Shown: in pieces, positions 1 to 64,000 of the stretch
Layout of the letters: the number at the start of each line of letters is the position of its first letter
How positions within the stretch are numbered: the first letter of the stretch is position 1
Source of the DNA: Vulcanimicrobiota bacterium
Lineage (GTDB): Bacteria > Vulcanimicrobiota > Xenobia > Xenobiales > JADMJV01
Length of the DNA: 64,000 nt
Reading direction: 5' to 3'
NCBI GenBank assembly: GCA_050250895.1
Contig: JBFWNU010000009.1
Span: 38,388-102,387, forward strand
Program-made: the position numbers and the translations under genes
Notes under the pieces: generated by a model
Told to the model about the DNA's origin: nothing
Seen by the model: only the letters and a program-made list of their open reading frames with translations
The model's database searches: none

Positions 1-488
1 CGGCTCAGACGCGCCACTACGACCAGGTCAGGCACTTTTCCATCGAGTTGCCAGCCGGCTGGAGCCCCAGCACCATGCAGAACGCCGACTTCGCCATGAG
101 CGATGGCAAATTGAGTCTTGGCGTATATACCCTCAACGATGCGGACCTGGCCAGCGCCGTGAGTCGCCTGGCCGAGACCTACAAGAAGCTGGGAGCCAAA
201 GAAACGCTCAAGCAGGCCATCACCATCAACGAAGTGCCCGGCAACATCTCGGTCTGGGAAGGGGGCGGAGAGGCCCTCCTGTCGACCGTGCTGGTCAGCG
301 GACAGGAGAAATTCTTGCTGTTGGGGACCTTTCCCAGCGGCTCGAGCAAGACCGACGCCGAGCGCATGGTGGTCATCTGCAAGTCGTTTCGCGTGGAAAG
401 AGGGGCGGCACCCGTCGCGGCACCGCCCCCCAGTCAGCCGGCCACTCCCCCGCCGATCAGCCAACCGCCGGAAGAAGACCAGTTCTAG
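1..488 (+). CDS. PsbP/DcrB-like protein, 5'-truncated by the window edge
   Basis: Frame is open from base 3 (AQTRHYDQVRHFSIELPAGW). FSIELPAGW and the closing 'KSFRV' resemble the PsbP-like fold; Pro-rich tail; TAG at 486-488. Confidence 0.55.
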   Translation, partial: AQTRHYDQVRHFSIELPAGWSPSTMQNADFAMSDGKLSLGVYTLNDADLASAVSRLAETYKKLGAKETLKQAITINEVPGNISVWEGGGEALLSTVLVSGQEKFLLLGTFPSGSSKTDAERMVVICKSFRVERGAAPVAAPPPSQPATPPPISQPPEEDQF

Positions 489-3400
489 CGAGCCACGTGA
501 TAGTCGGTGATGTAGAGGTGGGTGGTGTGGCGCCGGATCATATTCTCGACCATGCCTCGGTCCAGCCCTAGCAGCCCGATATCGGACAGGGTGTGGACGC
601 GGCCAGGCTCGACCAGCTGATCGCCGGCTAGCATGGCACCGGCGGTGCGGTGGTTGCCGTCCATCAGCAGATACTTGAAGCTCTCGCCGCCATTGATGGG
701 AATCTCGAGCACCTCTTGCCCGTCCTTGAAGCCGTTGATGGCTTGCTTGGTTTTGCCCCAATTGACCACCGGGCCGGGAGCTCCCTGAGCGAAGACCATG
801 TCGTCGATCTTCTTGGTGATGCCGCCACCGGTCGGCACCTCGCGTCGACCGGCGTAGCGGTCCACCGATTCCAGCATCTGGTCGACCAGCTGCTGGTGCT
901 CGTCCCAGCTCTGCTGCTTGCCCACGAAGGGCGGAGGACGCTTGCCGGTGAGCCGCTCTTTGATGGTGGTCGGGCCGTTGACGAAGCCGTCCACGGTCTG
1001 GTTGGGATTGACCGCTTTCGACAACTTCATGTCCTGGGTCCCGGCCAGAATCGGGTCGAACAGCTCGCGGGCGGCTTCGCCGCTGCCGACTTGCTCGGCC
1101 ACCTGAGTGAGCTGGCCGACCCGCTCGCTGAGCTGCTCTTTGAGGAACGGATCGGTCTTGAGCTGGTCTTTGAGCTGAGCGGCTTCGCGCGTGAGCATCG
1201 TCTGCATGTCGTCGCGCATGCTCTGGCGTGTGGCCTGATCGGCTCCGGCGTAAGCCTGGCCGAGTTCTTTGCGAAGATTCTCGTCTTTGAGCAGCTTCGA
1301 TTGAGGATCGTTGAAGTCGAAGCGCTGGTTGGCCGGGCCATCGTCGACGTCGCGACCCAGCCGCGCGGGCCGGCCCTGTTCGACCGGACGAGGACCGTCC
1401 ACGGTGTGCACGACGCGCCCAGGCCCGCCGCCGGGAGGGGTCGGGTCGTAGTAGAACGAGGTGTTATCGAGGTTGCCCATATCGAGCCCTTTGCGAGGCA
1501 GCTCGCTGACGGGAAGCTCGGTGTGGCCGTAGGGGGGCTCGCTCTGGGTGAGGTGAACGGTATCTCCGTCGACCACGCCGCTGTCGTATTTCTGCACTCG
1601 CCCCACCAGGTCTTGAAGCTCATCGGCCGAGTAACGCTGGCCACCCAGGGTGACCTCGTGCAGGTCGCTCTGGCGGATGTCGCCCACAGCGGCCGAATGC
1701 TCTTGCTGTTTGACCCAGGCGTCGCGCTCGGCCCCGGTCTTGGGCATCTTCTCCTGGGGCAGATAACGGCCCGGCATCCCCTGGGTGTCGAGCACGGCGA
1801 AGTTCTGGTCGTCGTTGAGGAAGCGCGGGTGAGTCTCGGTAGTGGGAGTGTATTTCGAGCTGCGGGCTTTGGCACTGCCATCGGCGAAAACGGTGGCTTC
1901 CAGGGCGTCCGGCGATCCGTCGGGGCCGCGGGCGGGGATGCCGTTGCCATCAAGGATGTTGGCGATGTCGTTGCCGTTGAGGGCGCGGTAGGCGATGCCC
2001 GCTTCGCGCGACAAGCGCACGGCTTCCTCTTTGCTGCCGGCCTTGAGGGCCTTCTCGATCTTGGCCTGGCGCTTGGGCGGAACGTCGCGTCCGAGCACAG
2101 CGCTGTCGTTGGCCGGGCCGGTCGGAGGCACCGCGTCGGCGGCGGCCGCCTCTTGGGCCTGGCGAGCGCGGATCTGGCCATCTTCGAGCCGGCTGAGGGC
2201 GGCGACATCCTGCGGCTGGCCGGTCTTGGGCTTGGGCTGCGACTTGAGGCGGTCGAAATAGTTGGCCACGAAATCGTGTCCGCCGGCTTCGGCCCGGTGC
2301 TCGGCCAGGCTGCTCTCGTAGGCTTGCCGGGCCTCGGCGATCTGCTCGGGGGAGGCGCCCTGCTCGCGCAACTGGCGCAGCTTGCCATAGGCCGCGTCGG
2401 CCTGGGACAGGGCGGCCGAGGCAGCCGCGTCGCCGCCGGCGGCCTGTTGGGCCAACACGGCGTGGTCGAGTTCGTGTCCGAACTCGTGGGCCGACACGCG
2501 ACCGTTGCTATCCACCGGCAGTTGAATCTGGGAGCGGCCGTTCTCGGTGATGGTCTGGGCCACATTGCCGGTGCCGATGTCGACGCCGTCGAGCATGTTG
2601 GGGTCAAGACCCCGCGACTGCAGATAGGCTGCCGCCTCGGAGCGCAGGTTGTCAGAGTCGAGGCGCAATTTGGAGGTCTCGGGGCTAAAGCCGCCCGCCG
2701 GAGCTTCACCACCGTGGGGCACCGGAGCATCCACCTTCGGGGCACGTAGGCGACTGGCCGCATCACCAGCGGTGCCAAAAGCCGGACCGAGAACGCCACC
2801 CACGGCCGCTCCCATCTTGGCCTTCTCATGCGCTTCTCCCAGCGAGTTGCCGTCGATGACCGCCCCGGCGAAGGTGCTGCCGTAGCCGTCGGCGGCACCC
2901 TCGACAGCGTTGAGGCCGCGAGCGGCCAACCAGGTGCCGGCCCCGGCCGAGCGACCGGCCAGCAGAGTCTTCTCGGCCAAAGCAGCGGCCCGGCTCGTGC
3001 CCAGGGCCGACATGGCGTTGACTCCGCCTTTGAAGAAATCGGTGGCGATGTTGCCCTGATACTGGCCACTGCCGGTGCCGGCTTCGAGAGCCTTCACTCC
3101 CACCTTGGTCAGCCCGCCGGCCAGCGGGGCGGCCACCAGCGAGGCTCCGCCGGTAACCGGAGCCAGCGCCAGGCCAGCCGATACCGAGGCCACATCCGAG
3201 ATCCCCTCGACCCAGTTCTCTTGCGAGGTCTTATACTCGCCGATGCGCTGCTCGATGCCACCCAGTTCGCCGCGCAGCTTGCCCAGGCGCTTTTCATACT
3301 CCTGGCGGAATTCGGCGTCGGTGCCCTGGAAATTGGCCATATCCATGATGGCCTGGCGCGATTGGATGGCGCCGCCGATCTGGTTGCCGATGGCCCGGCT

Positions 3401-6400
3401 ACCCAGGTTGGAGTCGATGACCCAGCCCCCGGGGCGTCCCAGTTCGTTCTTGACGCCGTCGGCGAAGTCGCCCACGATGCCCTGGTCGTCGACCACCTGG
3501 CGAAACTCCCGGTCGAGAGCGGCCGTCTGCTGGCCCACCCGGCCCAGGTCATAGGCCCGCGACAGCTTGCTCTTCATAGCGTCGTAGGCACCCGAATCGA
3601 GCTGGTTCTGCTCGCGCATCTGCTCGAGGGTAGACAGGCCGCGGGCCGCGTCGGTGGGGCTGATGGCCCGCATGTCGCGGTCCTGCAGGTCTTGCATGAA
3701 AGCCCCGTTGTTGACTCCGTAGAACGGGCTGTCTTCCCACCAGCCATTCTGCTGATAGGCGGCTTCGCGCTGGGCGGTGGCTTCGGCCGTCTTCTGCTCG
3801 AAGGACTTGTCCATCATCCGGTCCCCAGGAGCGGAGTAATTGTCCATCAGGTCAGTGTAAGAAATCTGGGCGCTGCCGGGCACCACGTCTCGGCGCAGAG
3901 CAGCTTCGACCTCTTCGACCTTGCCGGCTTTGAGGTCTTGCTCGAGCTGTTCGAGGCGCTGGTCGGACTTCTGCTGCCACTCGCCCAGCCGGCCCGCGTC
4001 TTCGGGTCGTTGCTGCGAACCCGTCTGCATCAGACGACCGGTTTCGTAGCGAGCCATCTGGATGCGCTCGCTGGCCACGGTGCCCATGACGCCCCGGCGC
4101 TCGTCGACCGACATCGAGTCCCAGGCCTGACCGGCGGCCTGCTGCAGCTGCTGGTCACCGACCCGGGCCCATTCCCGATCGAGTTCGTCGCGATCGATGT
4201 TGGCGGCCGACTGCAACTCTTTGCGCTGGGCCTCGCGCACGCCATCCTCGCGCATACCCGCGAGCTGCTCGCGACTCAGGCGCTGGACCTCAGCCTGGTA
4301 GGCGTTCCACTGGCGATTCTGGGCGTTGTCCTGGGCGCTGGCCCGGGGGCCGGTGCGGGCTCCGCCGGTGGGCGGGTCGACCCCGTACTGCTGCCGGAAG
4401 GTCTCGCGGGCCTGGCTCTGCAGATCAGCCTGAGCCTGCTGCTGAGCCGCGAAGTAGTGCGGCATGTTCTCTTTCATCAGGCGCTCATACTCGGCCTGGA
4501 CCTGGCGGCCTCGGCCCTGGGAGCCCTGCCCGCCCGACGGATACTTGGCTTCAGCCTGCTTCTTGAGCTTGGCGGCGGCCGCATCATAGCCGCCGTTCTG
4601 GGTGACGTAGTCCCGCTCGCTGGCAAACTGCCGATCGATCTGGGCCGACTGGCGTTGAGTGTAGCGCTCGGCGAAAGTGCTAGCGTCGACCGTGGCCGGA
4701 GTGTTGGCATTGCCGGCCTGATAGTCGGGATTGGGATACTGACCGTTGGCTTCGAGCGTGCGGGTGGCGAACTGCCGCTGCAAACCTTCGGGCTGGGTGC
4801 CGATGTGGGTCTGATAGTTCTCGGTGGCCGAATTCTGGCGCACCATCCCGTTCATCTGCGGGCTGTAGCCGGGCGGGAAGACGGTGTTCTGGTCGTAGAT
4901 GTCGCCCTGGGTGTTGTAGGCCTGCAGGTTGGCCTGGCTAAAATCGGCCCCGCGGGCATCGCCATAGACCGCCGGCTTGTCCCGCCGATTCTCGAACGGG
5001 TTGCCAAACTGCGAAGGCTGCCCTTGCCCGGGCGGCAATCCCAGGTGCTGGCGCAGCTCGGGGCTCATCTGGATGTCTCCCGGGGCGATGCCCCGACTTC
5101 TCAGGTCCTGATAGCCCTTCAGCTCTTTCTGCAGGGCCGGGGACGGCGGCTGGTTGCCGCCCGGGGCCGACACGGCTTGACCGGGACGCACCAGCTGAAT
5201 CTCGCCGTTGCCCGCGAAGCTGAAGGGCAGCTGCTGGGTGGAGGGACGGTTCATGCTCTGGTCCACCGGGGCGCTGTCGAAGGCCTGTCCCACGCTGAGC
5301 TGCCCCGCCTGGCGCGACAGCTTCTTGCCACGGTCGACGATGGCTGCATCCATGGCTTCCATCTGCTGGCGCACCGAAGCCAGGTCTTGGGACTGGGAGC
5401 GGCGGTCTAGCCCTTGAGCCTCGTAGGCCTGATTGAGTTCACGCTGGCGCGCCTCGAGCGAACTGAGCTGACCCGAGAAGTTCGGGAACATCTGCGCGTC
5501 CTGGCCGGCCTGATTGGCCCGCATCAAGACCTTGGCATCGTCGGCATTCTTGACCTGATCCATCTCGCGTCCGAAGACCTGGGTGGTGGGCCGCCCGTCG
5601 CGCAGGTCCTGGCGGGCCTGCAGCGTGATCTCAGAAGCCAGAGCCCCGTAGCGCTCGCGCTCCTGAGCACTATAATCCAGGGCTGACGGAGGCGGGCTGA
5701 ACGGACTGACCGGCCGCCCGCCGTTCATGCGGCTCTCGAGTTCGCTGAAGTTGTTGCCCACGGTCATACCCTCGAGTTGGGCGAACTGGCCCAGCGAGGC
5801 GTTGAGTTGCTGGCTGTCGCGCTGAATGCCAAGCCGCTGGGCCATCAACGGTGTCTGGGCCTCGGCCAACAGAGCTCGCATCTCTTGCTGGTTCTGGTCG
5901 AACTTGGCCCGCTCGGCCGAGTTGGTGGGCGGCACCTGAGCGTCGAGTTCTTTCTGGAAATCGGCCGCCTGCTGAGCCGTGATGGGCCCATTCATACCAG
6001 CCGTCTCGACCCGGTAACCCAGGCTGCCGTGGGCATACTCGGACCCGTTGGCGCTCAGCAACTGCACCTGCCCGTCGGCCCAGCCGCGGATGGCCTGGCT
6101 CTGCTCCTCGGCCGAAGGCCGATCCTGGGTCGGATTCTGCTGGCCGTTGCCGTTGGGCTGGCCCGGCTGGGCGACCGGGTTTTGCTGACCGTTGCTATTG
6201 ACCGGGTTGGCCTGACCGTTGCCGTTGGCTTGACCGTTGGCGGGCGGGTTTGCCTGGCCGTTGGCGGGGGGATTGGCCTGTCCGTTGGCTGGCGGGTTGG
6301 CCTGGCCGTCGGCTGGCGGGTTGGCCTGGCCGTTGGCGGGGGGATTGGCCTGTCCGTTGGCCGGCGGGTTGGCCTGGCCGTTGGCGGGGGGATTGGCCTG

Positions 6401-7093
6401 GCCGTTGGCGGGGGGATTGGCCTGTCCGTTGGCCGGCGGGTTGGCCTGGCCATTGGCCGGCGGGTTTGCCTGGCCGTCGGCGGGGGGGTTTGTCTGGCCG
6501 TTGGCTGGCGGGTTGGCCTGGCCATTGGCCGGCGGGTTGGCCTGGCCGTTGGCGGGGGGGTTGGCCTGGCCGTTGGCGGGGGGGTTGGCCTGGCCATCGG
6601 CTGGCGGGTTGGGCTGGCCATTGGCTGGCGGGTTGGCCTGGCCATTGGCCGGCGGGTTGGCCTGACCGTTGCCGTTGGCTTGACCGTTGGCGGGGGGATT
6701 GGCCTGACCGTTGCCGTTGGCTTGGCCCGGCTGGGCGGCGGGGTTTTGCTGACCGTTGCCGTTGGCCGCAGCTCCCCAACCACTGATGGCGCGACTCTGC
6801 TCGCGAGCCGATGGGCGGTTGGGGTCGCGGGGTTTGGCCTGGGGATTGGCTTTGGCTTTTTGACCCTGACCTGAAGCTTGAGGCTTGGTCTGCGGGCCCG
6901 ACGACGACTGGTCGGCCTTCTTGGCCGGGGCGGCTTGCTTTGATTGCTGGCCGGTGGCCGGCTGATCGGCCTTCTTGGCCGCCGGGGCCTTCTTGGATTG
7001 CACTGCCGGACGACGCTTTTGCGTCCTGGCTGCCCCTCCCGATTTGCGTGTCACCGGCCGCCTTGTCGGCGTTGTCTTACGTCTTACCCGCAT
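485..7093 (-). CDS. Giant (2202 aa) polymorphic-toxin-like / polyvalent protein
   Basis: Long ORF with GC3-biased codons. Basic low-complexity N-terminus, GQANPPAN repeats, Gln-rich helical core and a Gly/Ala-rich hydrophobic segment (GLALAPVTGGASLVAAPLAGG), followed by HELDH, AYRAL and LLMDGNHR motifs. Confidence 0.8.
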   Translation of the reverse strand: MRVRRKTTPTRRPVTRKSGGAARTQKRRPAVQSKKAPAAKKADQPATGQQSKQAAPAKKADQSSSGPQTKPQASGQGQKAKANPQAKPRDPNRPSAREQSRAISGWGAAANGNGQQNPAAQPGQANGNGQANPPANGQANGNGQANPPANGQANPPANGQPNPPADGQANPPANGQANPPANGQANPPANGQANPPANGQTNPPADGQANPPANGQANPPANGQANPPANGQANPPANGQANPPANGQANPPANGQANPPADGQANPPANGQANPPANGQANPPANGQANGNGQANPVNSNGQQNPVAQPGQPNGNGQQNPTQDRPSAEEQSQAIRGWADGQVQLLSANGSEYAHGSLGYRVETAGMNGPITAQQAADFQKELDAQVPPTNSAERAKFDQNQQEMRALLAEAQTPLMAQRLGIQRDSQQLNASLGQFAQLEGMTVGNNFSELESRMNGGRPVSPFSPPPSALDYSAQERERYGALASEITLQARQDLRDGRPTTQVFGREMDQVKNADDAKVLMRANQAGQDAQMFPNFSGQLSSLEARQRELNQAYEAQGLDRRSQSQDLASVRQQMEAMDAAIVDRGKKLSRQAGQLSVGQAFDSAPVDQSMNRPSTQQLPFSFAGNGEIQLVRPGQAVSAPGGNQPPSPALQKELKGYQDLRSRGIAPGDIQMSPELRQHLGLPPGQGQPSQFGNPFENRRDKPAVYGDARGADFSQANLQAYNTQGDIYDQNTVFPPGYSPQMNGMVRQNSATENYQTHIGTQPEGLQRQFATRTLEANGQYPNPDYQAGNANTPATVDASTFAERYTQRQSAQIDRQFASERDYVTQNGGYDAAAAKLKKQAEAKYPSGGQGSQGRGRQVQAEYERLMKENMPHYFAAQQQAQADLQSQARETFRQQYGVDPPTGGARTGPRASAQDNAQNRQWNAYQAEVQRLSREQLAGMREDGVREAQRKELQSAANIDRDELDREWARVGDQQLQQAAGQAWDSMSVDERRGVMGTVASERIQMARYETGRLMQTGSQQRPEDAGRLGEWQQKSDQRLEQLEQDLKAGKVEEVEAALRRDVVPGSAQISYTDLMDNYSAPGDRMMDKSFEQKTAEATAQREAAYQQNGWWEDSPFYGVNNGAFMQDLQDRDMRAISPTDAARGLSTLEQMREQNQLDSGAYDAMKSKLSRAYDLGRVGQQTAALDREFRQVVDDQGIVGDFADGVKNELGRPGGWVIDSNLGSRAIGNQIGGAIQSRQAIMDMANFQGTDAEFRQEYEKRLGKLRGELGGIEQRIGEYKTSQENWVEGISDVASVSAGLALAPVTGGASLVAAPLAGGLTKVGVKALEAGTGSGQYQGNIATDFFKGGVNAMSALGTSRAAALAEKTLLAGRSAGAGTWLAARGLNAVEGAADGYGSTFAGAVIDGNSLGEAHEKAKMGAAVGGVLGPAFGTAGDAASRLRAPKVDAPVPHGGEAPAGGFSPETSKLRLDSDNLRSEAAAYLQSRGLDPNMLDGVDIGTGNVAQTITENGRSQIQLPVDSNGRVSAHEFGHELDHAVLAQQAAGGDAAASAALSQADAAYGKLRQLREQGASPEQIAEARQAYESSLAEHRAEAGGHDFVANYFDRLKSQPKPKTGQPQDVAALSRLEDGQIRARQAQEAAAADAVPPTGPANDSAVLGRDVPPKRQAKIEKALKAGSKEEAVRLSREAGIAYRALNGNDIANILDGNGIPARGPDGSPDALEATVFADGSAKARSSKYTPTTETHPRFLNDDQNFAVLDTQGMPGRYLPQEKMPKTGAERDAWVKQQEHSAAVGDIRQSDLHEVTLGGQRYSADELQDLVGRVQKYDSGVVDGDTVHLTQSEPPYGHTELPVSELPRKGLDMGNLDNTSFYYDPTPPGGGPGRVVHTVDGPRPVEQGRPARLGRDVDDGPANQRFDFNDPQSKLLKDENLRKELGQAYAGADQATRQSMRDDMQTMLTREAAQLKDQLKTDPFLKEQLSERVGQLTQVAEQVGSGEAARELFDPILAGTQDMKLSKAVNPNQTVDGFVNGPTTIKERLTGKRPPPFVGKQQSWDEHQQLVDQMLESVDRYAGRREVPTGGGITKKIDDMVFAQGAPGPVVNWGKTKQAINGFKDGQEVLEIPINGGESFKYLLMDGNHRTAGAMLAGDQLVEPGRVHTLSDIGLLGLDRGMVENMIRRHTTHLYITDYHVAR
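6185..6765 (-). repeat. In-frame 24-bp tandem repeat encoding ~19 x GQANPPA(N/D)
   Basis: Repeated ggttggcctggccgttggcgggg-type units are directly visible, with synonymous variation between copies. Confidence 0.95.
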
Positions 7094-7233
7094 TGAACCC
7101 TCGCCAGCATCTTAGCGTGTCGGGTCAACGACTATTCGTCAAAAAATGTTAAAACTCGATGAACATTGTTGCCGTAATGTTTCGGGGACTGTTCCAAGCG
7201 CTCGTCGGGCTGGAAGCCGGACGCCGGGGTGCG

Positions 7234-7249
7234 ACTTCCACCTGGAAGT
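7234..7249. repeat. Solo inverted repeat ACTTCCA-CC-TGGAAGT (variant of the 13.1-14.3 kb array core)
   Basis: One mismatch from ACTTCCAGCTGGAAGT; intergenic, ~140 bp upstream of the giant gene start. Confidence 0.6.
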
Positions 7250-8179: not shown

Positions 8180-9482
8180 TCTTTCGTTGCATCCACATGA
8201 AGTAAGGCAATCCGGCTGCGATCAGTCCCAGACCTACGGTCGATTCGAAAGGACGCTCCCAGAAGTTCAGCCCGAGAATCCACAGCAGACTGGCCAGAAA
8301 AATGGCGGGGGTGGCCGGATAACCCCAGCACTGGTAGGGTCGCTCGCGCTCGGGCTGGCGCGCCCGGAGCACGTAGATGGCTAGCGCGGTCAGGGCCGAG
8401 AAGACCATGATCCCGAAGATGACATAATTGGTCAGCAGGTCGAACAGACTCTCCTTACCTCTCAGATACTCGCCGGCCACCACCAGCACGGTGCTCCACA
8501 CCGAATAGGCGATGATGGCCCGGTGAGGCGTGGCGTAACGCTCGTGGACGGTAGCGAAAGCCCGGGGAGCCAGGCCGTCGCGGGCCATGGCGAAGAAGAT
8601 ACGCGGGCCGCACAACAACCCCGCGTTGAGGGTGCCGAGCACCGAGATCAGCAAGAAGAGGTTGAGCAGTCGGCCCCCGATGGGGCCGGCCAGACGACTG
8701 ACCATATCGGCAGCCGGAGTGGGCGAGGCGGCCAGCTCTGCCATCGGCATACTGGCGTGAATGCCCAGATTGATAGCCATGTACAAAACCATGGTCAGGC
8801 CCACCCCGAACACCAGTGCCCGCGGCACCTGGCGTTGGGGTTCCTGCATCTCCTCGGCCACAGTAGTCACGTTGTACCAGCCGTCGTAGGCCCACAGCAC
8901 GGCCAGGAAGGCAGCTGCCCAGGCGGGGGTCGGGGGAATCGAACGACTGGCGAGAAAGCTCTCCGAGCCGAGATAGAGCAGTGGCAGTCCGGTGACCAGC
9001 ACCAGGCCCGAGACCTTGAAAAAGAGGGCGATGTCCTGTAGGCGGCCCGAGCCTTCGACTCCCACCACGTTCCAACCAGCCAGCAGGGCAATGATCACGA
9101 TGGCCACCGCTGGCAAGGTGGCTCCCTGACAGCCCAGCAGGGTGGCCGCCGCCACAGCCAGAGCGCCGGTCGAGGCCGAGCGAGCGAAGAAGAAGTCGGT
9201 CCACCCGGCCAAAAAGGCCGGGCATCGCCCCCAGGCTTCGCGCAGATAGACATAAGCCCCGCCCGACTCGGGAATCATCGCCGCCAGCTCGGCATAGACC
9301 AGCCCCCCGAGCAGCGAGATGATGCCGCCGGCCAGCCACACCAACAAAATCAGATCGAGCCGTCCCAGGCTCTTGGCCATGACGTTCTGCTTGAAGAAAA
9401 TGCCCGAGCCGACCATCGTGCCCACCACGATGGCCACCCCCTGGCGCAGGCCCAGGGCCCGGCGCAGCCCCGACTCAGACAT
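8157..9482 (-). CDS. APC family amino acid permease
   Basis: GTMVGSGIF, YAELAAMIPESGG, WAYDGW motifs; ~12 hydrophobic segments. Confidence 0.95.
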   Translation of the reverse strand: MSESGLRRALGLRQGVAIVVGTMVGSGIFFKQNVMAKSLGRLDLILLVWLAGGIISLLGGLVYAELAAMIPESGGAYVYLREAWGRCPAFLAGWTDFFFARSASTGALAVAAATLLGCQGATLPAVAIVIIALLAGWNVVGVEGSGRLQDIALFFKVSGLVLVTGLPLLYLGSESFLASRSIPPTPAWAAAFLAVLWAYDGWYNVTTVAEEMQEPQRQVPRALVFGVGLTMVLYMAINLGIHASMPMAELAASPTPAADMVSRLAGPIGGRLLNLFLLISVLGTLNAGLLCGPRIFFAMARDGLAPRAFATVHERYATPHRAIIAYSVWSTVLVVAGEYLRGKESLFDLLTNYVIFGIMVFSALTALAIYVLRARQPERERPYQCWGYPATPAIFLASLLWILGLNFWERPFESTVGLGLIAAGLPYFMWMQRKNALSAAD

Positions 9483-11155
9483 TACAGCTTCTTGGCGATC
9501 TTGGTCCAGGAATCGCGCAGCGGCACGATGCGATTAAAGACCAGTTTGTCGGCGTTGCTATCGGGATCCACCACGAAGTAGCCCTGACGCTCGAACTGGT
9601 AGCGGTTGCCCGGGCTGGTGCCGGTCAGGGCCGGTTCGACCCTGGCCTCGGGCCTTACGACCAGCGAGTCCTCGGCGATCAGATCGAGCCAGTTGTCGGC
9701 GCTGTCGGGGCGCGCGTCGGTAAACAGGCAGGAGTAGAGCCTGACTTCGGCGGGCAGGCTGTGACTGGCCGAAACCCAATGGATAGTGCCTTTGACCTTC
9801 CGACCATCGGGCGAAGAACCGCCGCGGGTCTCGGGGTCGTAGGTGCAGCGCAGCTCGACGATCTCGCCCTGCTCGTCTTTGATCACCTCGTTGCAGGTGA
9901 TGTAGTAGGCTCGCCGCAGGCGCACCTCGCGTCCGGGAGCCAGCCGGAAGAACTTCTTGGGCGGGTCTTCCATGAAGTCTTCGCGCTCGATGTAGATCTC
10001 GCGGGTGAAAGGCACCTCGCGCGAGCCCATGGCCGGGGGATCGTCGGGATAATAAGGAGCCTCGAACTGCTCGACCTGCCCCTCGGGATAGTTGGTAATC
10101 ACGACCTTGAGCGGGTCAAGCACGCCCATCACCCGTTCGGTGGTCGTGTTGAGGTGATTGCGCACGCTGTCTTCCAGCAGGGCCAGCTCGATCCACTGGG
10201 TCTTTTTGGTGATGCCGACCCGGTCCACAAAGTCGCGGATCGCCTCGGGTGTGTAGCCGCGCCGGCGCATGCCCCGCAGGGTCGGCATACGCGGGTCGTC
10301 CCAGCCAGCCACCCGCTTTTCTCGCACCAGCTGGATCAGCTTTCGCTTGCTCATCACCGTGTAGTTGAGGTTGAGCCGACTGAACTCGATCTGCTGCGGA
10401 CGGCAGGCCGTGCCGACCTTCTCGAGCACCCACTCGTAGAGGGGCCGATTGTTCTCGAACTCGAGACTGCACAGCGAGTGGGTGATGCCCTCGATGGCGT
10501 CCGACAGGCAGTGGGTGTAGTCATACATCGGATAGATGCACCACTTGTCGCCACTGCGGTGATGGTGGGCCTTGCGAATGCGATACAAAGTCGGGTCGCG
10601 CATGACCACGTTGGGAGAGGCCATGTCGATCTTGGCGCGCAAGACCCGGGCCCCGTCTTCGAACTCGCCCGCCCGCATGCGCTCGAACAGCTCGAGATTC
10701 TCTTCGAGGCTGCGATTGCGATAGGGGCTTTCCCGGCCCGGTTCGGTGAGGGTCCCTCGATACTCGCGGATCTGGTCGGCGGTCAGGTCGTCGACATAGG
10801 CGTGACCGGAACGGATCAGGCCGACCGCATACTCATAGAGCTGATCGAAATAGTCCGAGGCGTGGTATTCGTGGTCGCCCCAATCCCAGCCCAGCCAGCG
10901 GATGTCCTCGGCGATGGCCTCGACATACTCGGTGTCTTCCTTGAGCGGGTTGGTATCGTCAAAGCGAAGATGACAACGACCGGCGTAGTCTCGGGCGATG
11001 CCGAAATTGAGACAGATGGCCTTGGCGTGGCCGATATGCAGATAGCCGTTGGGCTCGGGAGGAAAGCGAGTGACCACCTGGCGGTGTTTACCCGAGGCCA
11101 GGTCGGCATCGATAATCTGGCGGATGAAGTTGGTGGAGGTTTCGACGGTAGACAT
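9482..11155 (-). CDS. glnS: Glutamine--tRNA ligase
   Basis: [15 protein letters not shown] (HIGH), [23 protein letters not shown]. Start trimmed to [15 protein letters not shown] at 11155. Confidence 0.98.
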
Positions 11156-11522: not shown

Positions 11523-11556
11523 AGGAAAGGGCCCCGCTCTTCACAGCGCGGAACCT
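11523..11556 (-). terminator. Hairpin with GUGA tetraloop followed by CUUUCCUUU; putative terminator of the HNH transcript
   Basis: Minus strand GGTTCCGC-G-CT-GTGA-AG-A-GCGGGGCC-CTTTCCTTT, lying between convergent genes. Confidence 0.5.
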
Positions 11557-11651
11557 CGATATGGCCACAGGGCAGGCCTCGGTATTGCGGATAGTCCGCC
11601 TGACACCCGGCGGCGGAGTGGCCGCTCCTACAATACAGCGTATAGCACCCA

Positions 11652-12833
11652 TCAGCCTGAGCGTGACCTGGTCCGCCGACGCTGCGCCTTATCCCGGGCG
11701 GCCTTCCACTCGGGTCGATTTGCAAAGTCTTTCTCGTGCGCGTTGGCGTGGCAACCCGGACACAACAACTCCAAATCTTCCAGTCGATGCTGCCGAGTTT
11801 CGGACCAGGCCCGAACGTGATGCACTACCAGATTGCCCTCAGAGCACGAACATCGCTCACAGCGGCCAAAAGCGCGAGCATAGACCGCTCGCACCAACCC
11901 CACCGGCAGCCCGGGCCGACCCTTAGACCGACTCGGCAGTAGCGGCAACTGTTCGGCCTGAGTACTTCCAGCTGGAAGTACAGCCTGGGGACAGGCCACC
12001 ACGATGCCGGTTTGCTTCATCGCCTCGTCAACCGCCTCGGGCTCGGCCGGCAAGAGTCCGCGATCGGTATCATAGAAGCCTTCGCCGGTCACACCGTTCA
12101 CGTGAACGATGACCTGATGACGCACTTTGCTGCGGTTGTCGGCCGAGGCCAGCAGGGCCCTGCTCATCTCGGCCACGGCCGTCTCCTGGCTGACGCGCTT
12201 GCCCCGGCGGGCCTCGACCAGTCTCTTGGCCTGCTCATAGATAGCATACTCCTCGGGGGGCAGCAGCAGAATAACCTTTCGTAACTTCGGCGCCTCCGGA
12301 ACGGCAGGCGGCGCGGGTTGAACTGGCCTCGCGGGTTGCTCGGTGAAGGTCAACTCGGGCTGACTCTGGCGAGCCTCGAGCGAAGCTTGCAAAGCCTGGC
12401 CACGCTTGTGTTGGGTGGGAGTCAGAGCCACGGCGCGCTCGACTGCCTGGGCCTTGTTCTTCAGCGCAAACTCGAGCATCTCGGCCTCGTTGTCGGGGGT
12501 GGTGATCCGCTTGAGAGCGCGGGCTTTGCTCCAGCAGAGCCTCCCGTCGCGAAAGGCTTCCGAGACGAGGGGCAGTTGCTCGAAAACCCTGGCCAAACTG
12601 AGGAGTTCGCCGGCCTTCTGGGGATGCAGGTTGAGGTGATGGATAGCGTAGCCAACGGTGCTACCACAGCCCATCTGCCGATACAGTCCGCTGCGCTCGG
12701 TAGCCAAGAGGTGGGCGGCCAGCTCCCATTCGCAGCCAAAGGAGCGCTTGCTCGCCTGGCGGTTTCTCTGGTGGAGCTCCTGGTGAGAAAGCTGTTGCAG
12801 GGAGTGGGAAAATCCTGACAGAGTTGTAGACAT
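11652..12833 (-). CDS. HNH endonuclease with DUF222-like N-terminal helical domain
   Basis: C-terminal CERC...VVHHV...EDLELLCPGCHANAH; N-terminal LY..MG..S..GY...LNL...A..L...LP.V..AF.DG.L.WSK pattern; GGAGGG RBS 6 nt before ATG at 12833. Confidence 0.85.
   Translation of the reverse strand: MSTTLSGFSHSLQQLSHQELHQRNRQASKRSFGCEWELAAHLLATERSGLYRQMGCGSTVGYAIHHLNLHPQKAGELLSLARVFEQLPLVSEAFRDGRLCWSKARALKRITTPDNEAEMLEFALKNKAQAVERAVALTPTQHKRGQALQASLEARQSQPELTFTEQPARPVQPAPPAVPEAPKLRKVILLLPPEEYAIYEQAKRLVEARRGKRVSQETAVAEMSRALLASADNRSKVRHQVIVHVNGVTGEGFYDTDRGLLPAEPEAVDEAMKQTGIVVACPQAVLPAGSTQAEQLPLLPSRSKGRPGLPVGLVRAVYARAFGRCERCSCSEGNLVVHHVRAWSETRQHRLEDLELLCPGCHANAHEKDFANRPEWKAARDKAQRRRTRSRSG
11962..11981. 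repeat. Perfect 20-bp palindrome GTACTTCCAGCTGGAAGTAC inside the HNH gene
   Basis: Read directly from the sequence; encodes VLPAGST in the linker before the HNH domain. Confidence 0.95.
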
Positions 12834-13091
12834 CAGCAGCCCTCCGAGGCGAAGAAGAATCAAGCAATGATCCTATTTTACTCAAGATTAGCCGCCGAAT
12901 CAACGCAACGAAACGGCTTGGTTGTGGGGTTTAAATGGCGCCTCACCGGTGGCCGCGAGAACGGTTTCCAGTGAAAAAATGACGGCGCCAACCAGTTTCT
13001 TGTGCGGATGACTGACAGGCGCCCTTCAGGGCTCAGGGCGCCAAGTTTGGATAGCACGATCTCCAGGGCAACTCCCCAGTTCACAAATATT

Positions 13092-13100
13092 AGGATATCA
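13092..13100 (-). promoter_or_regulatory. Putative extended -10 promoter (TG-A-TATCCT) facing the HNH gene
   Basis: AT-rich patch at 13081-13110 between array and leader; TCACAA direct repeat at 13081 and 13098. Confidence 0.35.
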
Positions 13101-13120
13101 CAACATTTGATCTGGCGGTG

Positions 13121-14300
13121 GTTACTTCCAGCTGGAACTCCGCGGCGGGTCCGCGGCCAACAATCCGGGGGGTTTCGGAGAACGAGTCTACTTCCAGCTG
13201 GAAGACCGCGGCCCCGCGGCGGGTCCTGAAGTTCGCCGCCCGGGCGACCGGCGAGCGGGTCCGCGACCAACAATCCGGGGGATATGGGAGAGCGAGTGTA
13301 CTTCCAGCTGGAAGACCGCCGCCCCAAGCCCGAGCCGGGTTCGGCGAATCGCGCAAACCCAGGGCTCGCCGCCCGAGCCCGCCCCCCCAGAGGCTCGCCG
13401 CCCGGGCCACCGGCCGCCAACACCCCGGCGTGGTATCGGAGTGCGAGTGCAATTCCAGCTGGAAGTCGCGGGCCCAGCGGCGGGTTCTCAAGTTCGCCGC
13501 CCGGGACCACCGCGAGCGGGTCCGCGGCCACAAGCCCGGGCCGGTTTCGGCGAGCGCGCAAACCCAGGGCTCGCCGCCCGAACCCGTCCCCGCCCCCCGG
13601 CGAGCGAGTCCGTGGTCCGGCTGGAATCCTTCGCCTGGCCGAGCCAGGGTTGAACAATCGCGCCGACTCTCGGGGCCGCCGCCCGGGCCACCGGCCGCCA
13701 ACACCCCGGCGTGGTATCGGAGTGCGAGTGCAATTCCAGCTGGAAGTCGCGGGCCCAGCGGCGGGTTCTCAAGTTCGCCGCCCGGGCCACCGGCGAGCGG
13801 GTCCGCGATCAACCCCGCGGGGTATCGGAGAGCGAGTGTACGTCCCGCTGGAAGACCGCCGCCGCAAGCCCGAGCCGGGTTCGGAGAGCGCGCAAATTCC
13901 CAGGGCTCGCCGCCCGGGCCATCGGCGAGCGGAGCCGCGGCCAACAACCCCGCGGGCTATCGGAGTGCGAGTCTACTTCCAGCTGGAAGACCGGTGGGTT
14001 CTCAAAGTTCGCCGCCGGGACCACCGCGAGCGGGTCCGCGGCCACAAGCCTGGGCCGGGTTCGGCGAGCGCGCAAACCCAGGGCTCGCCGCCCGAACCCG
14101 TCCCCCAGAGTTCGCCCCCCGGGGAGCGAGTCCGTGGTCCGGCTGGAATCCTCCGCCTGGCCGAGCCAGGGTTGAACAATCGCGCCGACTCTCGGGGCCG
14201 CCGCCCGTGCGGAGGCTGAGGAGCGGGAGTCTACTTCCAGCTGGAAGATCGCCGCTCGGGTCATCGGCGAGCGGAGCCGTGGCCAACAACCCCGCAGGCG
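13121..14300. repeat. Modular intergenic repeat array built around palindrome TTCCAGCTGGAA
   Basis: Perfect cores start at 13126, 13192, 13302, 13453, 13734, 13977 and 14235; degenerate cores near 13616, 13842 and 14137. Block duplications 13397-13505/13678-13786 and ~13490-13685/~14005-14205. Confidence 0.93.
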
Positions 14301-63697: not shown

Positions 63698-64000
63698 TGC
63701 TCCCGCGAAATCACGGAGCATGCTCCCACAAAAACCCGGAGCAGGCCCGTTCTGCCTCGCTGGCGCGGGTTGCTCCCACAAAAACCCGGAGCCTGCTCCC
63801 ACAAAACCGGAGCAGGCCCGTTCTGCCTCGCTGGCGCGGGTTGCTCCCACAAAAACCCGGAGCATGCTCCCACAAAAACCCGGAGCAGGCCCGTTCTGCC
63901 GGGCTGGGGCGGGTTGCTCCCGCGAAAACTCGGAGCATGCTCCCACAAAACCCGGGAGCAGGCCCGTTCTGCCGGGCTGGGGCGGGTTGCTCCCGCGAAA
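63698..64000. repeat. REP-like tandem array (TGCTCCCACAAAAACCCGGAGCA x2 + 27-bp linker), runs off the window end
   Basis: About 9 copies of the ~23-mer in ~72-bp higher-order units; GGAGCATGCTCC palindromes at the junctions. Confidence 0.92.

Follow-up and report, generated by a model that had tools for sequence, protein, structure and literature searches.

What does a DUF222-HNH protein recognize, and why would its gene carry a perfect palindrome that recurs as an array in the DNA upstream of it? These questions arise from a locus in a 64,000-nt stretch, here termed the window, of the genome of a Vulcanimicrobiota bacterium (GenBank assembly GCA_050250895.1, contig JBFWNU010000009.1, positions 38,388 to 102,387, forward strand). 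An initial annotation made from the letters of the window had described an HNH/DUF222 gene, here P0001, containing the palindrome, with a 1.2-kb array of the same palindrome upstream, and had proposed that nuclease and palindrome belong together. The dispersed, repeated nature of DUF222-HNH genes, also called '13E12 repeat' genes, was already apparent in the first mycobacterial genome. Analysis of the genome holding the window (9.5 Mb, 63% G+C, 17 contigs, 99.6% complete) points to a reading to which we assign a probability of about 0.55, namely that every DUF222-HNH subfamily encodes a nuclease that binds DNA as a dimer at one specific palindrome, and that this cognate site is found twice in the cassette, at its 5' edge and within the gene, so that the family would behave as a selfish, site-addicted nuclease gene.

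A two-site palindrome layout co-varies with nuclease subfamily

By its Pfam matches P0001 belongs to the DUF222-HNH (REP13E12) family: residues 325-367 match HNH (PF01844, E = 1e-6) and residues 20-154 match DUF222 (PF02720, E = 1.3e-5), the DUF222 score of 25.2 bits exceeding the gathering cut-off of 24.4 by a small margin. Nine of the 16 DUF222 matches listed for the genome score above this cut-off. The window contains eight copies of the 12-mer palindrome TTCCAGCTGGAA; the expected number is 0.01, and in 100 shuffles a count of eight was never attained. One copy lies within P0001, as had been reported, inside the 20-nt palindrome GTACTTCCAGCTGGAAGTAC, and seven lie in the upstream array. 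The 12-mer had been noticed nowhere else in the window; it is indeed absent from the rest of the window, and has 135 copies genome-wide, making it the commonest 12-nt palindrome of the genome.

Searches of this genome by tblastn identified 18 copies of the gene including that of the window, with 62-100% amino acid (aa) identity and one copy truncated at the N-terminus (family A), four copies at 43-45% aa identity (family B) and approximately 19 more distant DUF222 hits (family C). A family profile matched 43 open reading frames (ORFs) with a minimum length of 300 aa. Nucleotide comparison shows a repeated unit that begins just beyond the first upstream palindrome and ends at the stop codon, with unrelated sequence on both flanks; in the youngest cassette pair, 90% identical, 1532 nt are held in common, from approximately 20 nt outside the 5' palindrome to approximately 27 nt past the stop. 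Similarity of the window cassette to other copies stops near 11660-11700 and 13130-13150, and the array starts with the 5' palindrome of this cassette. The 17 full-length family-A copies are intact with no internal stop, and their median number of synonymous substitutions per site (dS) is 0.775, with a nonsynonymous to synonymous ratio (dN/dS) of 0.129 (range 0.07-0.19, 136 pairs). These values indicate that the family-A copies are old and under selection.

Within family A the palindrome occupies two places. The internal site is a perfect 12-mer at +832 to +880 from the ATG (approximately +856) in 15 of 18 copies; in the remaining three the site at this place deviates by one or two mismatches. 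Upstream, a perfect 12-mer is found at -297 to -315 in 11 of 18 copies and within -520 to -290 in 16 of 18. The motif as seen genome-wide is the 16-mer ACTTCCAGCTGGAAGT. The internal palindrome codes for LPAGS in every copy and lies in the low-confidence segment preceding the HNH domain (residues 281-302), where its columns are 0.88-1.00 identical at all three codon positions and neighbouring linker columns 0.18-0.8. A 27-nt in-frame insertion bearing a second, degenerate palindrome is present in four copies. The upstream regions have diverged by 42% on average with the palindrome still retained, and the spacer between the palindrome and the first conserved block cannot be aligned among copies. 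Taken together, these patterns of conservation indicate that the palindrome is held by selection at the DNA level at two fixed places of the cassette. A recombination break test, comparing distance matrices on either side of the internal palindrome, was uninformative (r 0.37-0.70, star-like neighbours).

The same layout is found with other palindromes in other subfamilies. In subfamily C1, CACACGTGTG is present at -264 in seven of nine copies and at +665 in all nine, and 16 of the 19 genome copies of this 10-mer sit in C1 cassettes. One family-B gene has ACTTCCGGCCGGAAGT at -722, -502, -103 and +1077 and another has CTTCCGCGCGGAAG at -463 and +1048; no palindrome both upstream and internal was found for the other two genes of this family. 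In subfamily C2 the pre-HNH linker again holds a palindrome, here of 18 nt around CCCCCGGGGG and located at +725. The related A and B sites have an outer half-site, ACTTCC, in common and differ in their central four bases, and the distant C1 and C2 sites are unrelated and lack this half-site. Co-variation of palindrome and protein, a test put forward in the initial annotation, thus holds at the level of subfamilies within this genome. The 10-bp palindrome of C1 cannot form a stable hairpin, which favours recognition of the duplex by a dimer.

The layout is enriched in these genes relative to the remainder of the genome. Considering ORFs of 300 aa or more, 25 of 42 DUF222-HNH ORFs have one and the same palindrome of 10 nt or longer within the ORF and within the preceding 800 nt, compared with 143 of 5507 others (2.6%), and the same 12-mer palindrome was present in both places for 18 of the 42 and for 29 of the 5507; as the paralogues are kin, this enrichment is worth some four to five independent cases and not 25. 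The 42 are those of the 43 profile-matching ORFs that had sufficient upstream sequence.

The C1 copies, approximately nine with 93-99% conserved columns, were also observed to form a sharply bounded 1.6-kb element (e.g. C1:370300-371950 and C3:16260-17900, positions outside the window being given as contig:position). The element has CCCCTCCGCGCACACGTGTGTC at the left end and, at the right, a GC-rich hairpin with T's after it; in one copy (C2:478876) the left end is joined straight to the coding region.

Predicted fold and dimerization of P0001

The single-sequence fold of P0001 was poor, with a predicted local distance difference test score (pLDDT) of 37.9, and the structure was modelled with AlphaFold2 (AF2) from a 45-sequence alignment. 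The resulting model has a pLDDT of 81.3 with disordered linkers at residues 157-177 and 281-302. Residues 30-133 superpose on the helix-turn-helix (HTH) DNA-binding domains of Spo0J (Z 9.3, root-mean-square deviation 2.1 over 91 residues), ParB-parS (Z 8.9) and KorB (Z 7.8 and 7.1), Z values to be read with the aligner's warning that below approximately 13 they can reflect a common arrangement, the domain being helical and the query itself a predicted model. The top Foldseek rows were the DNA-binding domains of Noc and ParB at E 0.2-0.9, with no Foldseek match at E 0.001 or better. In the model the DUF222 domain resembles the DNA-binding domain of ParB and KorB; the limits of the superposition and of the Foldseek search count against palindrome recognition by this domain. 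Residues 180-235 are weakly like ribbon-helix-helix proteins (Z 4.0-4.2). For the ParB/Srx CTPase domain, no Pfam family was detected at E up to 0.1, and the fold matches begin at the HTH domain of their targets.

In the model the C-terminus matches the HNH nucleases GVE2 (Z 7.7) and McrA (Z 7.0), and this is the only part of the protein with solved sequence relatives, namely IscB (4.4e-10), McrA (1.1e-8) and a group II intron maturase (1.2e-7). Residues C325, H339, C358, H362 and H366 are invariant in the 45 sequences. When residues 1-280 were modelled as a homodimer the score was 0.80, against 0.00 for the best control, the mark used being one reached by 20 of 30 proteins solved as same-chain pairs and by one of 23 solved as single chains. 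The dimer runs agree in at least 96% of contacts, with partner pLDDT of at least 72, and give a symmetric interface comprising residues 4-102 and 182-267. P0001 is therefore predicted to form a two-fold symmetric homodimer.

Conservation of the palindrome, its co-variation with the protein, the modelled fold and the predicted symmetry together suggest that the protein recognizes the site. The cassette is a compact, self-contained unit of approximately 1.5 kb, ordered as 16-bp palindrome, AT-rich box, own promoter and DUF222-HNH gene. A homodimer would read ACTTCCAGCTGGAAGT as duplex through its ParB/KorB-type HTH, and possibly also through the ribbon-helix-helix-like middle domain, and the internal site would be placed in the disordered linker as the one stretch tolerant of constraint at the DNA level. 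Binding of the protein at its own sites may result in autoregulation, or in looping between the upstream and internal sites. The HNH domain would nick or cut at or near palindromes, and the resulting breaks would promote recombination, occasional duplication of the cassette, and tandem amplification that proceeds locally outward from the 5' palindrome and gives rise to the arrays. Such a family would behave as a site-addicted nuclease gene and not as a classical transposon.

Arrays, relatives and competing explanations

The upstream array of the window, with its seven perfect and three degenerate copies, was confirmed as described in the initial annotation. Perfect sites begin at 13126, 13192, 13302, 13453, 13734, 13977 and 14235 (span 13126-14246), and degenerate sites with at most two mismatches at 13615, 13842 and 14137. 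The array has a mosaic structure in which modules of 38-131 nt recur; its sites are spaced by 66, 110, 151, 281 and further nt, and its units are repeated whole, the DNA between the palindromes included. Long ORFs in the array have G+C contents by codon position of 0.70/0.76/0.71, compared with 0.68/0.48/0.72 in the HNH gene; this flat profile, together with the absence of Pfam matches in these ORFs, indicates that the array is non-coding, and the repeat spacings are not multiples of 3.

Genome-wide, 37 arrays of five palindrome types were found, amounting to 38.7 kb in all. The four array-forming palindromes other than TTCCAGCTGGAA are GCCGAATTCGGC (124 copies), TTCCGCGCGGAA (52), GGAGCATGCTCC (36) and TTCCACGTGGAA (22). 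A DUF222-HNH hit is found within 3 kb for 11 of the 37 arrays, a minority but far more than the approximately one expected by chance; eight of the 11 are on the 5' side of the gene. As an observation in its own right, GGAGCATGCTCC makes up five larger arrays with no DUF222-HNH gene nearby, and a separate tandem array of it begins at the end of the window (63715-64000; C9:102102-102538), comprising four sites with spacings of 144, 73 and 219. In some arrays two or three different perfect palindromes, such as TTCCAGCTGGAA and GCCGAATTCGGC, are interleaved with matching periods, an arrangement resembling the mosaics termed bacterial interspersed mosaic elements (BIMEs), here in a genome without a Y1 transposase.

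Several observations weigh against the preferred reading. For 66 of the 135 sites of the 12-mer the nearest family A or B copy is over 5 kb away, and 26 of the 37 arrays have no DUF222-HNH gene within 3 kb. No HNH gene carries the array palindromes GCCGAATTCGGC or GGAGCATGCTCC, different palindromes are mixed within single arrays, and family-A cassettes adjoin arrays of foreign palindromes (C1:3341606; C11:73729 and 76464). The arrays without an HNH partner and the mixing of palindromes imply that array formation needs no nearby cognate cassette and may be a separate process. The youngest cassette pair has neither terminal inverted repeats nor a target duplication and the copies are old (dS 0.78), so that mobility of the cassette is something we infer. 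An intact putative cleavage site in the nuclease's own gene is the opposite of what is seen in a classical homing endonuclease, and the recognition claim rests on sequence statistics and models. The proposal that nuclease and palindrome belong together keeps the support of co-variation and of DNA-level selection at the two cassette places, and part of what the initial annotation named as evidence to the contrary, arrays spread through the genome away from the HNH genes, was also found.

Relatives in other genomes add to these objections. Among 40 homologue loci from nine other genomes, each taken as the gene plus 800 nt upstream, a perfect 10-mer palindrome is repeated in two, compared with 198 of 3000 random windows of the present genome. 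With the criterion relaxed to arms of 6 or longer and loops of no more than 3, four of the 40 loci had the layout, compared with none of 31 control flanks, leaving 36-38 of the 40 without it. An internal palindrome matching a neighbouring one is accordingly seen in 25 of 42 ORFs of this genome and in only two to four of the relative loci. A test based on shared words (k=11) was rejected as too permissive, being positive in 25 of 35 own pairings and 581 of 992 cross pairings. One homologue in a genome of another genus has GTCCCCCGGGGGAC at -525, +721 and +1627. Two further homologue loci of other genera were observed to carry, beside the HNH gene, small arrays of still different palindromes: GAAGCGCTTC at 2102, 2395 and 2709, approximately 300 nt apart (genome G011, locus L060), and GCCCTCGAGAGGGC at -746, -504 and -309 from the ORF, approximately 200-240 nt apart (genome G016, locus L058). 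Copy numbers of TTCCAGCTGGAA (135 here, 0-5 in 40 relatives) and GCCGAATTCGGC (124 here, 0-5 in 20 relatives) are only weak evidence of a private expansion, since the relatives are fragmented assemblies of 40-940 contigs in which tandem repeats are often unassembled.

For a comparison of empty with filled sites the relatives proved too distant, a same-genus genome having a glnS 72% identical to that of the window, with the neighbouring genes on other contigs. Sludge-metagenome contigs approximately 92% alike extend from the side of glnS into the HNH gene as far as its 3' part, and this indicates that in a related population the site is filled; in these contigs the intergenic 139 nt are replaced by 195 other letters. 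The contigs end at the palindrome with the array patchily covered, and the array joints differ in them, but short-read contigs can collapse repeats. No empty site was found among the same-genus genome and the sludge contigs, of which the uncovered parts are not evidence. A search for related loci returned none in genome contigs with P0001 or A2 as query, none in metagenome contigs with P0001 and one partial locus with A2. In the protein database 30 relatives of P0001 were found, mostly paralogues from this same genome, the closest named relatives being proteins of metagenome-assembled genomes labelled Ca. Eremiobacteraeota.

The main rival draws on just these observations. It holds that palindromes and arrays are an independent system of the kind formed by repetitive extragenic palindromic (REP) sequences and BIMEs, that a founder cassette carried two copies which its descendants inherited, that the HNH protein is not the recognizer, and that cassettes gather beside arrays because arrays are tolerant intergenic DNA. 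The arrays without nearby DUF222-HNH genes, the mixing of palindrome types, the two abundant palindromes without an HNH partner, the many sites remote from families A and B, and the relatives that mostly lack the layout all agree with it. Inheritance alone, however, fails to explain why both sites are perfect at such a dS amid decaying flanks, and four other subfamily lineages repeat the layout with different palindromes, including C1, whose palindrome sits mostly in cassettes. There is also no RAYT to spread REPs: the RAYT-type Y1/HUH transposase family PF01797 had no matches in this 99.6% complete genome, the control search being positive in 6 of 14 named genomes. We consider this explanation unlikely, though no other competitor fares better.

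A second alternative is that the palindrome serves only as an operator, at which a potentially toxic nuclease represses its own synthesis as KorB and ParB do at their own operons, with the HNH domain acting on another substrate and the arrays being decoys or unrelated. Such a role is consistent with the ParB/KorB-like fold and predicted symmetric dimer, with one site upstream of a conserved promoter and one inside the gene, and with co-variation of the kind that co-evolution of operator and repressor predicts. The upstream site is, however, approximately 200 nt from the promoter and not over it, no CTPase domain of the ParB kind was found by Pfam for action at a distance, and neither the 135 copies nor the arrays starting at the cassette's own 5' site are explained. 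As a complete account it is somewhat less likely than the independent repeat system; a pure operator role may well be part of the truth.

The promoter in question confirms the AT-rich promoter-like patch of the initial annotation. The motif TTGATT-17-TAAAAT is the only promoter-like site found, and it points away from the array. As this conserved promoter is only 42 nt from the ATG, most of the supposed hairpin-rich leader of approximately 250 nt lies upstream of it. The 292 nt from the ATG to the first palindrome do fold better than shuffles in the window copy (z -2.74, 2 of 200 shuffles as good); an alignment of 17 paralogue upstream regions gave no consensus structure (RNAalifold -4.3 kcal/mol), and the leader was not upheld as a conserved RNA. 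The element reported downstream as structured is not part of the repeated unit, and its folding is no better than that of shuffles (z -0.14 and +0.07); it was likewise discounted. An Rfam search at E up to 1 returned no match, with no HEARO or omega-RNA. It is accordingly very improbable that the array or upstream region is transcribed and processed to repeat-bounded RNAs, as had been suggested for the array, or to guide-like RNAs of a CRISPR-like or IscB/HEARO-like kind, or that the palindrome is an mRNA hairpin: the folding of the window copy and the place of IscB among the nearest solved relatives of the HNH domain speak for it, and the absence of Rfam matches and consensus structure, the position and direction of the promoter, array units repeated whole with no unique spacers, the lack of RuvC or other IscB domains and the inability of the C1 palindrome to form a stable hairpin speak against it.

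The AT-rich box AATRTT-N10-AAYATT has 48 strand-wise matches genome-wide, 30 of which come from family-A cassettes. SOS/LexA control is reported for M. tuberculosis members of the DUF222-HNH family, but a role of this box as a LexA box gained no support: it was found neither upstream of recA nor of four LexA-domain genes. A solitary ACTTCCAGCTGGAAG was noticed at C7:361537, approximately 100 nt 5' of a gene for a 202-aa protein with a LexA DNA-binding domain (C7:361651, plus strand), a single instance that may be due to chance.

Features of the locus are collected in the table below. Genes around P0001 encode an amino-acid permease, glutaminyl-tRNA synthetase (GlnRS), a small ORF product, a PilZ protein, an acyltransferase, a histidine-kinase ATPase fragment and an ankyrin protein. 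The neighbour annotation contains no cas, transposase or reverse transcriptase gene, in agreement with the initial annotation, and no partition ATPase gene is adjacent. A second glnS is present in the genome at C12:33658-35297, with 73% DNA identity to that of the window (9482-11155). Elsewhere in the window, 5' of a 2202-aa ORF (485-7093, minus strand), there is a box AATGTT-N11-AACATT (7145-7167) like the AT-rich box of the cassette, and 69 nt beyond it a one-mismatch palindrome, ACTTCCACCTGGAAGT (7236-7247), in the same order as at the cassette 5' end; similarity between this upstream region and the cassette 5' region is limited to the near-palindrome.

Table. Positions of the cassette and array features in the window, and of mixed arrays elsewhere in the genome (contig:position)
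Feature	Position	Strand	Basis and remarks
DUF222-HNH gene P0001, 393 aa	11652..12833	-	Pfam, alignment and model; predicted ParB/KorB-like HTH ~30-137, middle domain ~180-275, disordered linker 281-302, HNH ~305-393
Internal palindrome GTACTTCCAGCTGGAAGTAC	11962..11981		Encoded peptide VLPAGST, in the disordered linker before the HNH domain; 15/18 paralogues have a perfect 12-mer at this position
Sigma-70-like promoter TTGATT-17-TAAAAT	12875..12903	-	42 nt 5' of the ATG; block conserved in the paralogue alignment, then GGAGG
Cassette upstream region (the supposed leader)	12904..13085	-	Conserved sequence blocks, no conserved RNA structure; upstream of the promoter
AT-rich 22-bp inverted-repeat box AATRTT-N10-AAYATT	13086..13107		First conserved block of the cassette; at family-A cassettes
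5'-edge palindrome of the cassette, also array unit 1	13126..13137		-304 from the ATG
Non-coding mosaic tandem array	13126..14300		Perfect and degenerate sites; larger repeated modules 98-131 nt
Repeated ~1.5-kb cassette, approximate extent	11625..13157	-	Limits taken from the youngest pair: ~20 nt beyond the 5' palindrome and ~27 nt beyond the stop codon
Mixed-palindrome arrays	C5:418327-419499; C11:64552-66729; C13:49225-52311; C10:197370-199246; C3:334797-335417		

Relation to known systems and significance

Among described genes, P0001 is closest to REP13E12 or 13E12 repeat genes of mycobacteria, with which it has the DUF222 plus HNH Pfam architecture in common and which are likewise dispersed, multi-copy genes of approximately 1.4-1.5 kb; the organism here is unrelated, and the match to the Pfam DUF222 model is marginal. 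REP13E12/HNH/DUF222 is named as a repeat class in Mycobacterium tuberculosis in PMC10589994, and the DUF222-HNH 13E12 genes of that species are described in PMC13157036 as coinciding with inversion breakpoints and as induced by DNA damage. The portions seen of the DUF222-HNH/REP13E12 literature, including PMC10589994, PMC3592412 and PMC13157036, give no substrate, recognition site, cognate palindrome, two-site layout, palindrome arrays or ParB-like fold.

Two other groups offer partial parallels. RAYT (TnpA-REP) with its REPs and BIMEs likewise links a gene to a short palindrome, which occurs both dispersed and in clusters forming mosaic, mixed-type arrays. Unlike that system, the genome has no Y1/HUH transposase, so the chemistry would be that of HNH, and there are 18 gene copies and not one; the palindrome lies inside coding sequence, and its perfect, loop-less sites, one of only 10 bp, suit a duplex better than single-stranded DNA hairpins. 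The second group comprises ParB/Spo0J, KorB, Noc and SopB with their sites parS, OB, NBS and sopC. These sites too are palindromic, and it is on the HTH domain of these proteins that the DUF222 model superposes, a likeness of predicted fold with no sequence match. Proteins of the ParB/KorB group act as dimers on palindromes of 13-16 bp; sopC consists of such sites arrayed in tandem, and spo0J contains a parS. In contrast to this group, P0001 has no CTPase domain, has an HNH domain fused to it and is not accompanied by an adjacent partition ATPase.

Other comparisons end in differences. IscB/HEARO includes a sequence relative of the HNH domain, and both are multi-copy HNH genes with conserved upstream DNA; P0001, however, lacks the RuvC and PLMP domains, a HEARO or omega-RNA match in Rfam and a conserved upstream RNA structure. 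CRISPR differs in that here whole units are repeated without unique spacers and no cas gene is among the neighbours. The system is thus neither IscB/HEARO nor CRISPR. A free-standing HNH homing endonuclease gene, which in the allele carrying it disrupts the recognition site and whose flanks are homologous in filled and empty alleles, differs as well, since here the palindrome is intact inside the gene in 15 of 18 copies and the flanks of the copies are unrelated.

A broader form of the preferred reading is a speculative one that we consider improbable: DUF222/REP13E12-type HNH proteins as a class would be ParB-like, palindrome-specific nucleases, each lineage cutting or nicking a cognate palindrome present at and within its gene and thereby seeding REP/BIME-like arrays and driving recombination between copies, an HNH counterpart of RAYT/REP. 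Even if recognition of the palindrome by the nuclease should fail, the locus provides well-documented palindromic repeats under selection inside coding sequence.

This genome constitutes a natural experiment, in that 43 DUF222-HNH genes fall into several subfamilies with their own perfect palindromes at two fixed places of the cassette, and it gives a first testable clue to what the long-unexplained DUF222-HNH repeated genes recognize. If the palindromes are indeed the cognate sites of their nucleases, the DUF222-HNH family would gain a substrate, DUF222 could be identified as a DNA-binding domain of the ParB type, and there would be a candidate maker for REP-like arrays in a genome without RAYT. 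Should the reading extend to the class as a whole, it would provide a mechanistic explanation for why 13E12 genes mark inversion breakpoints in mycobacteria.

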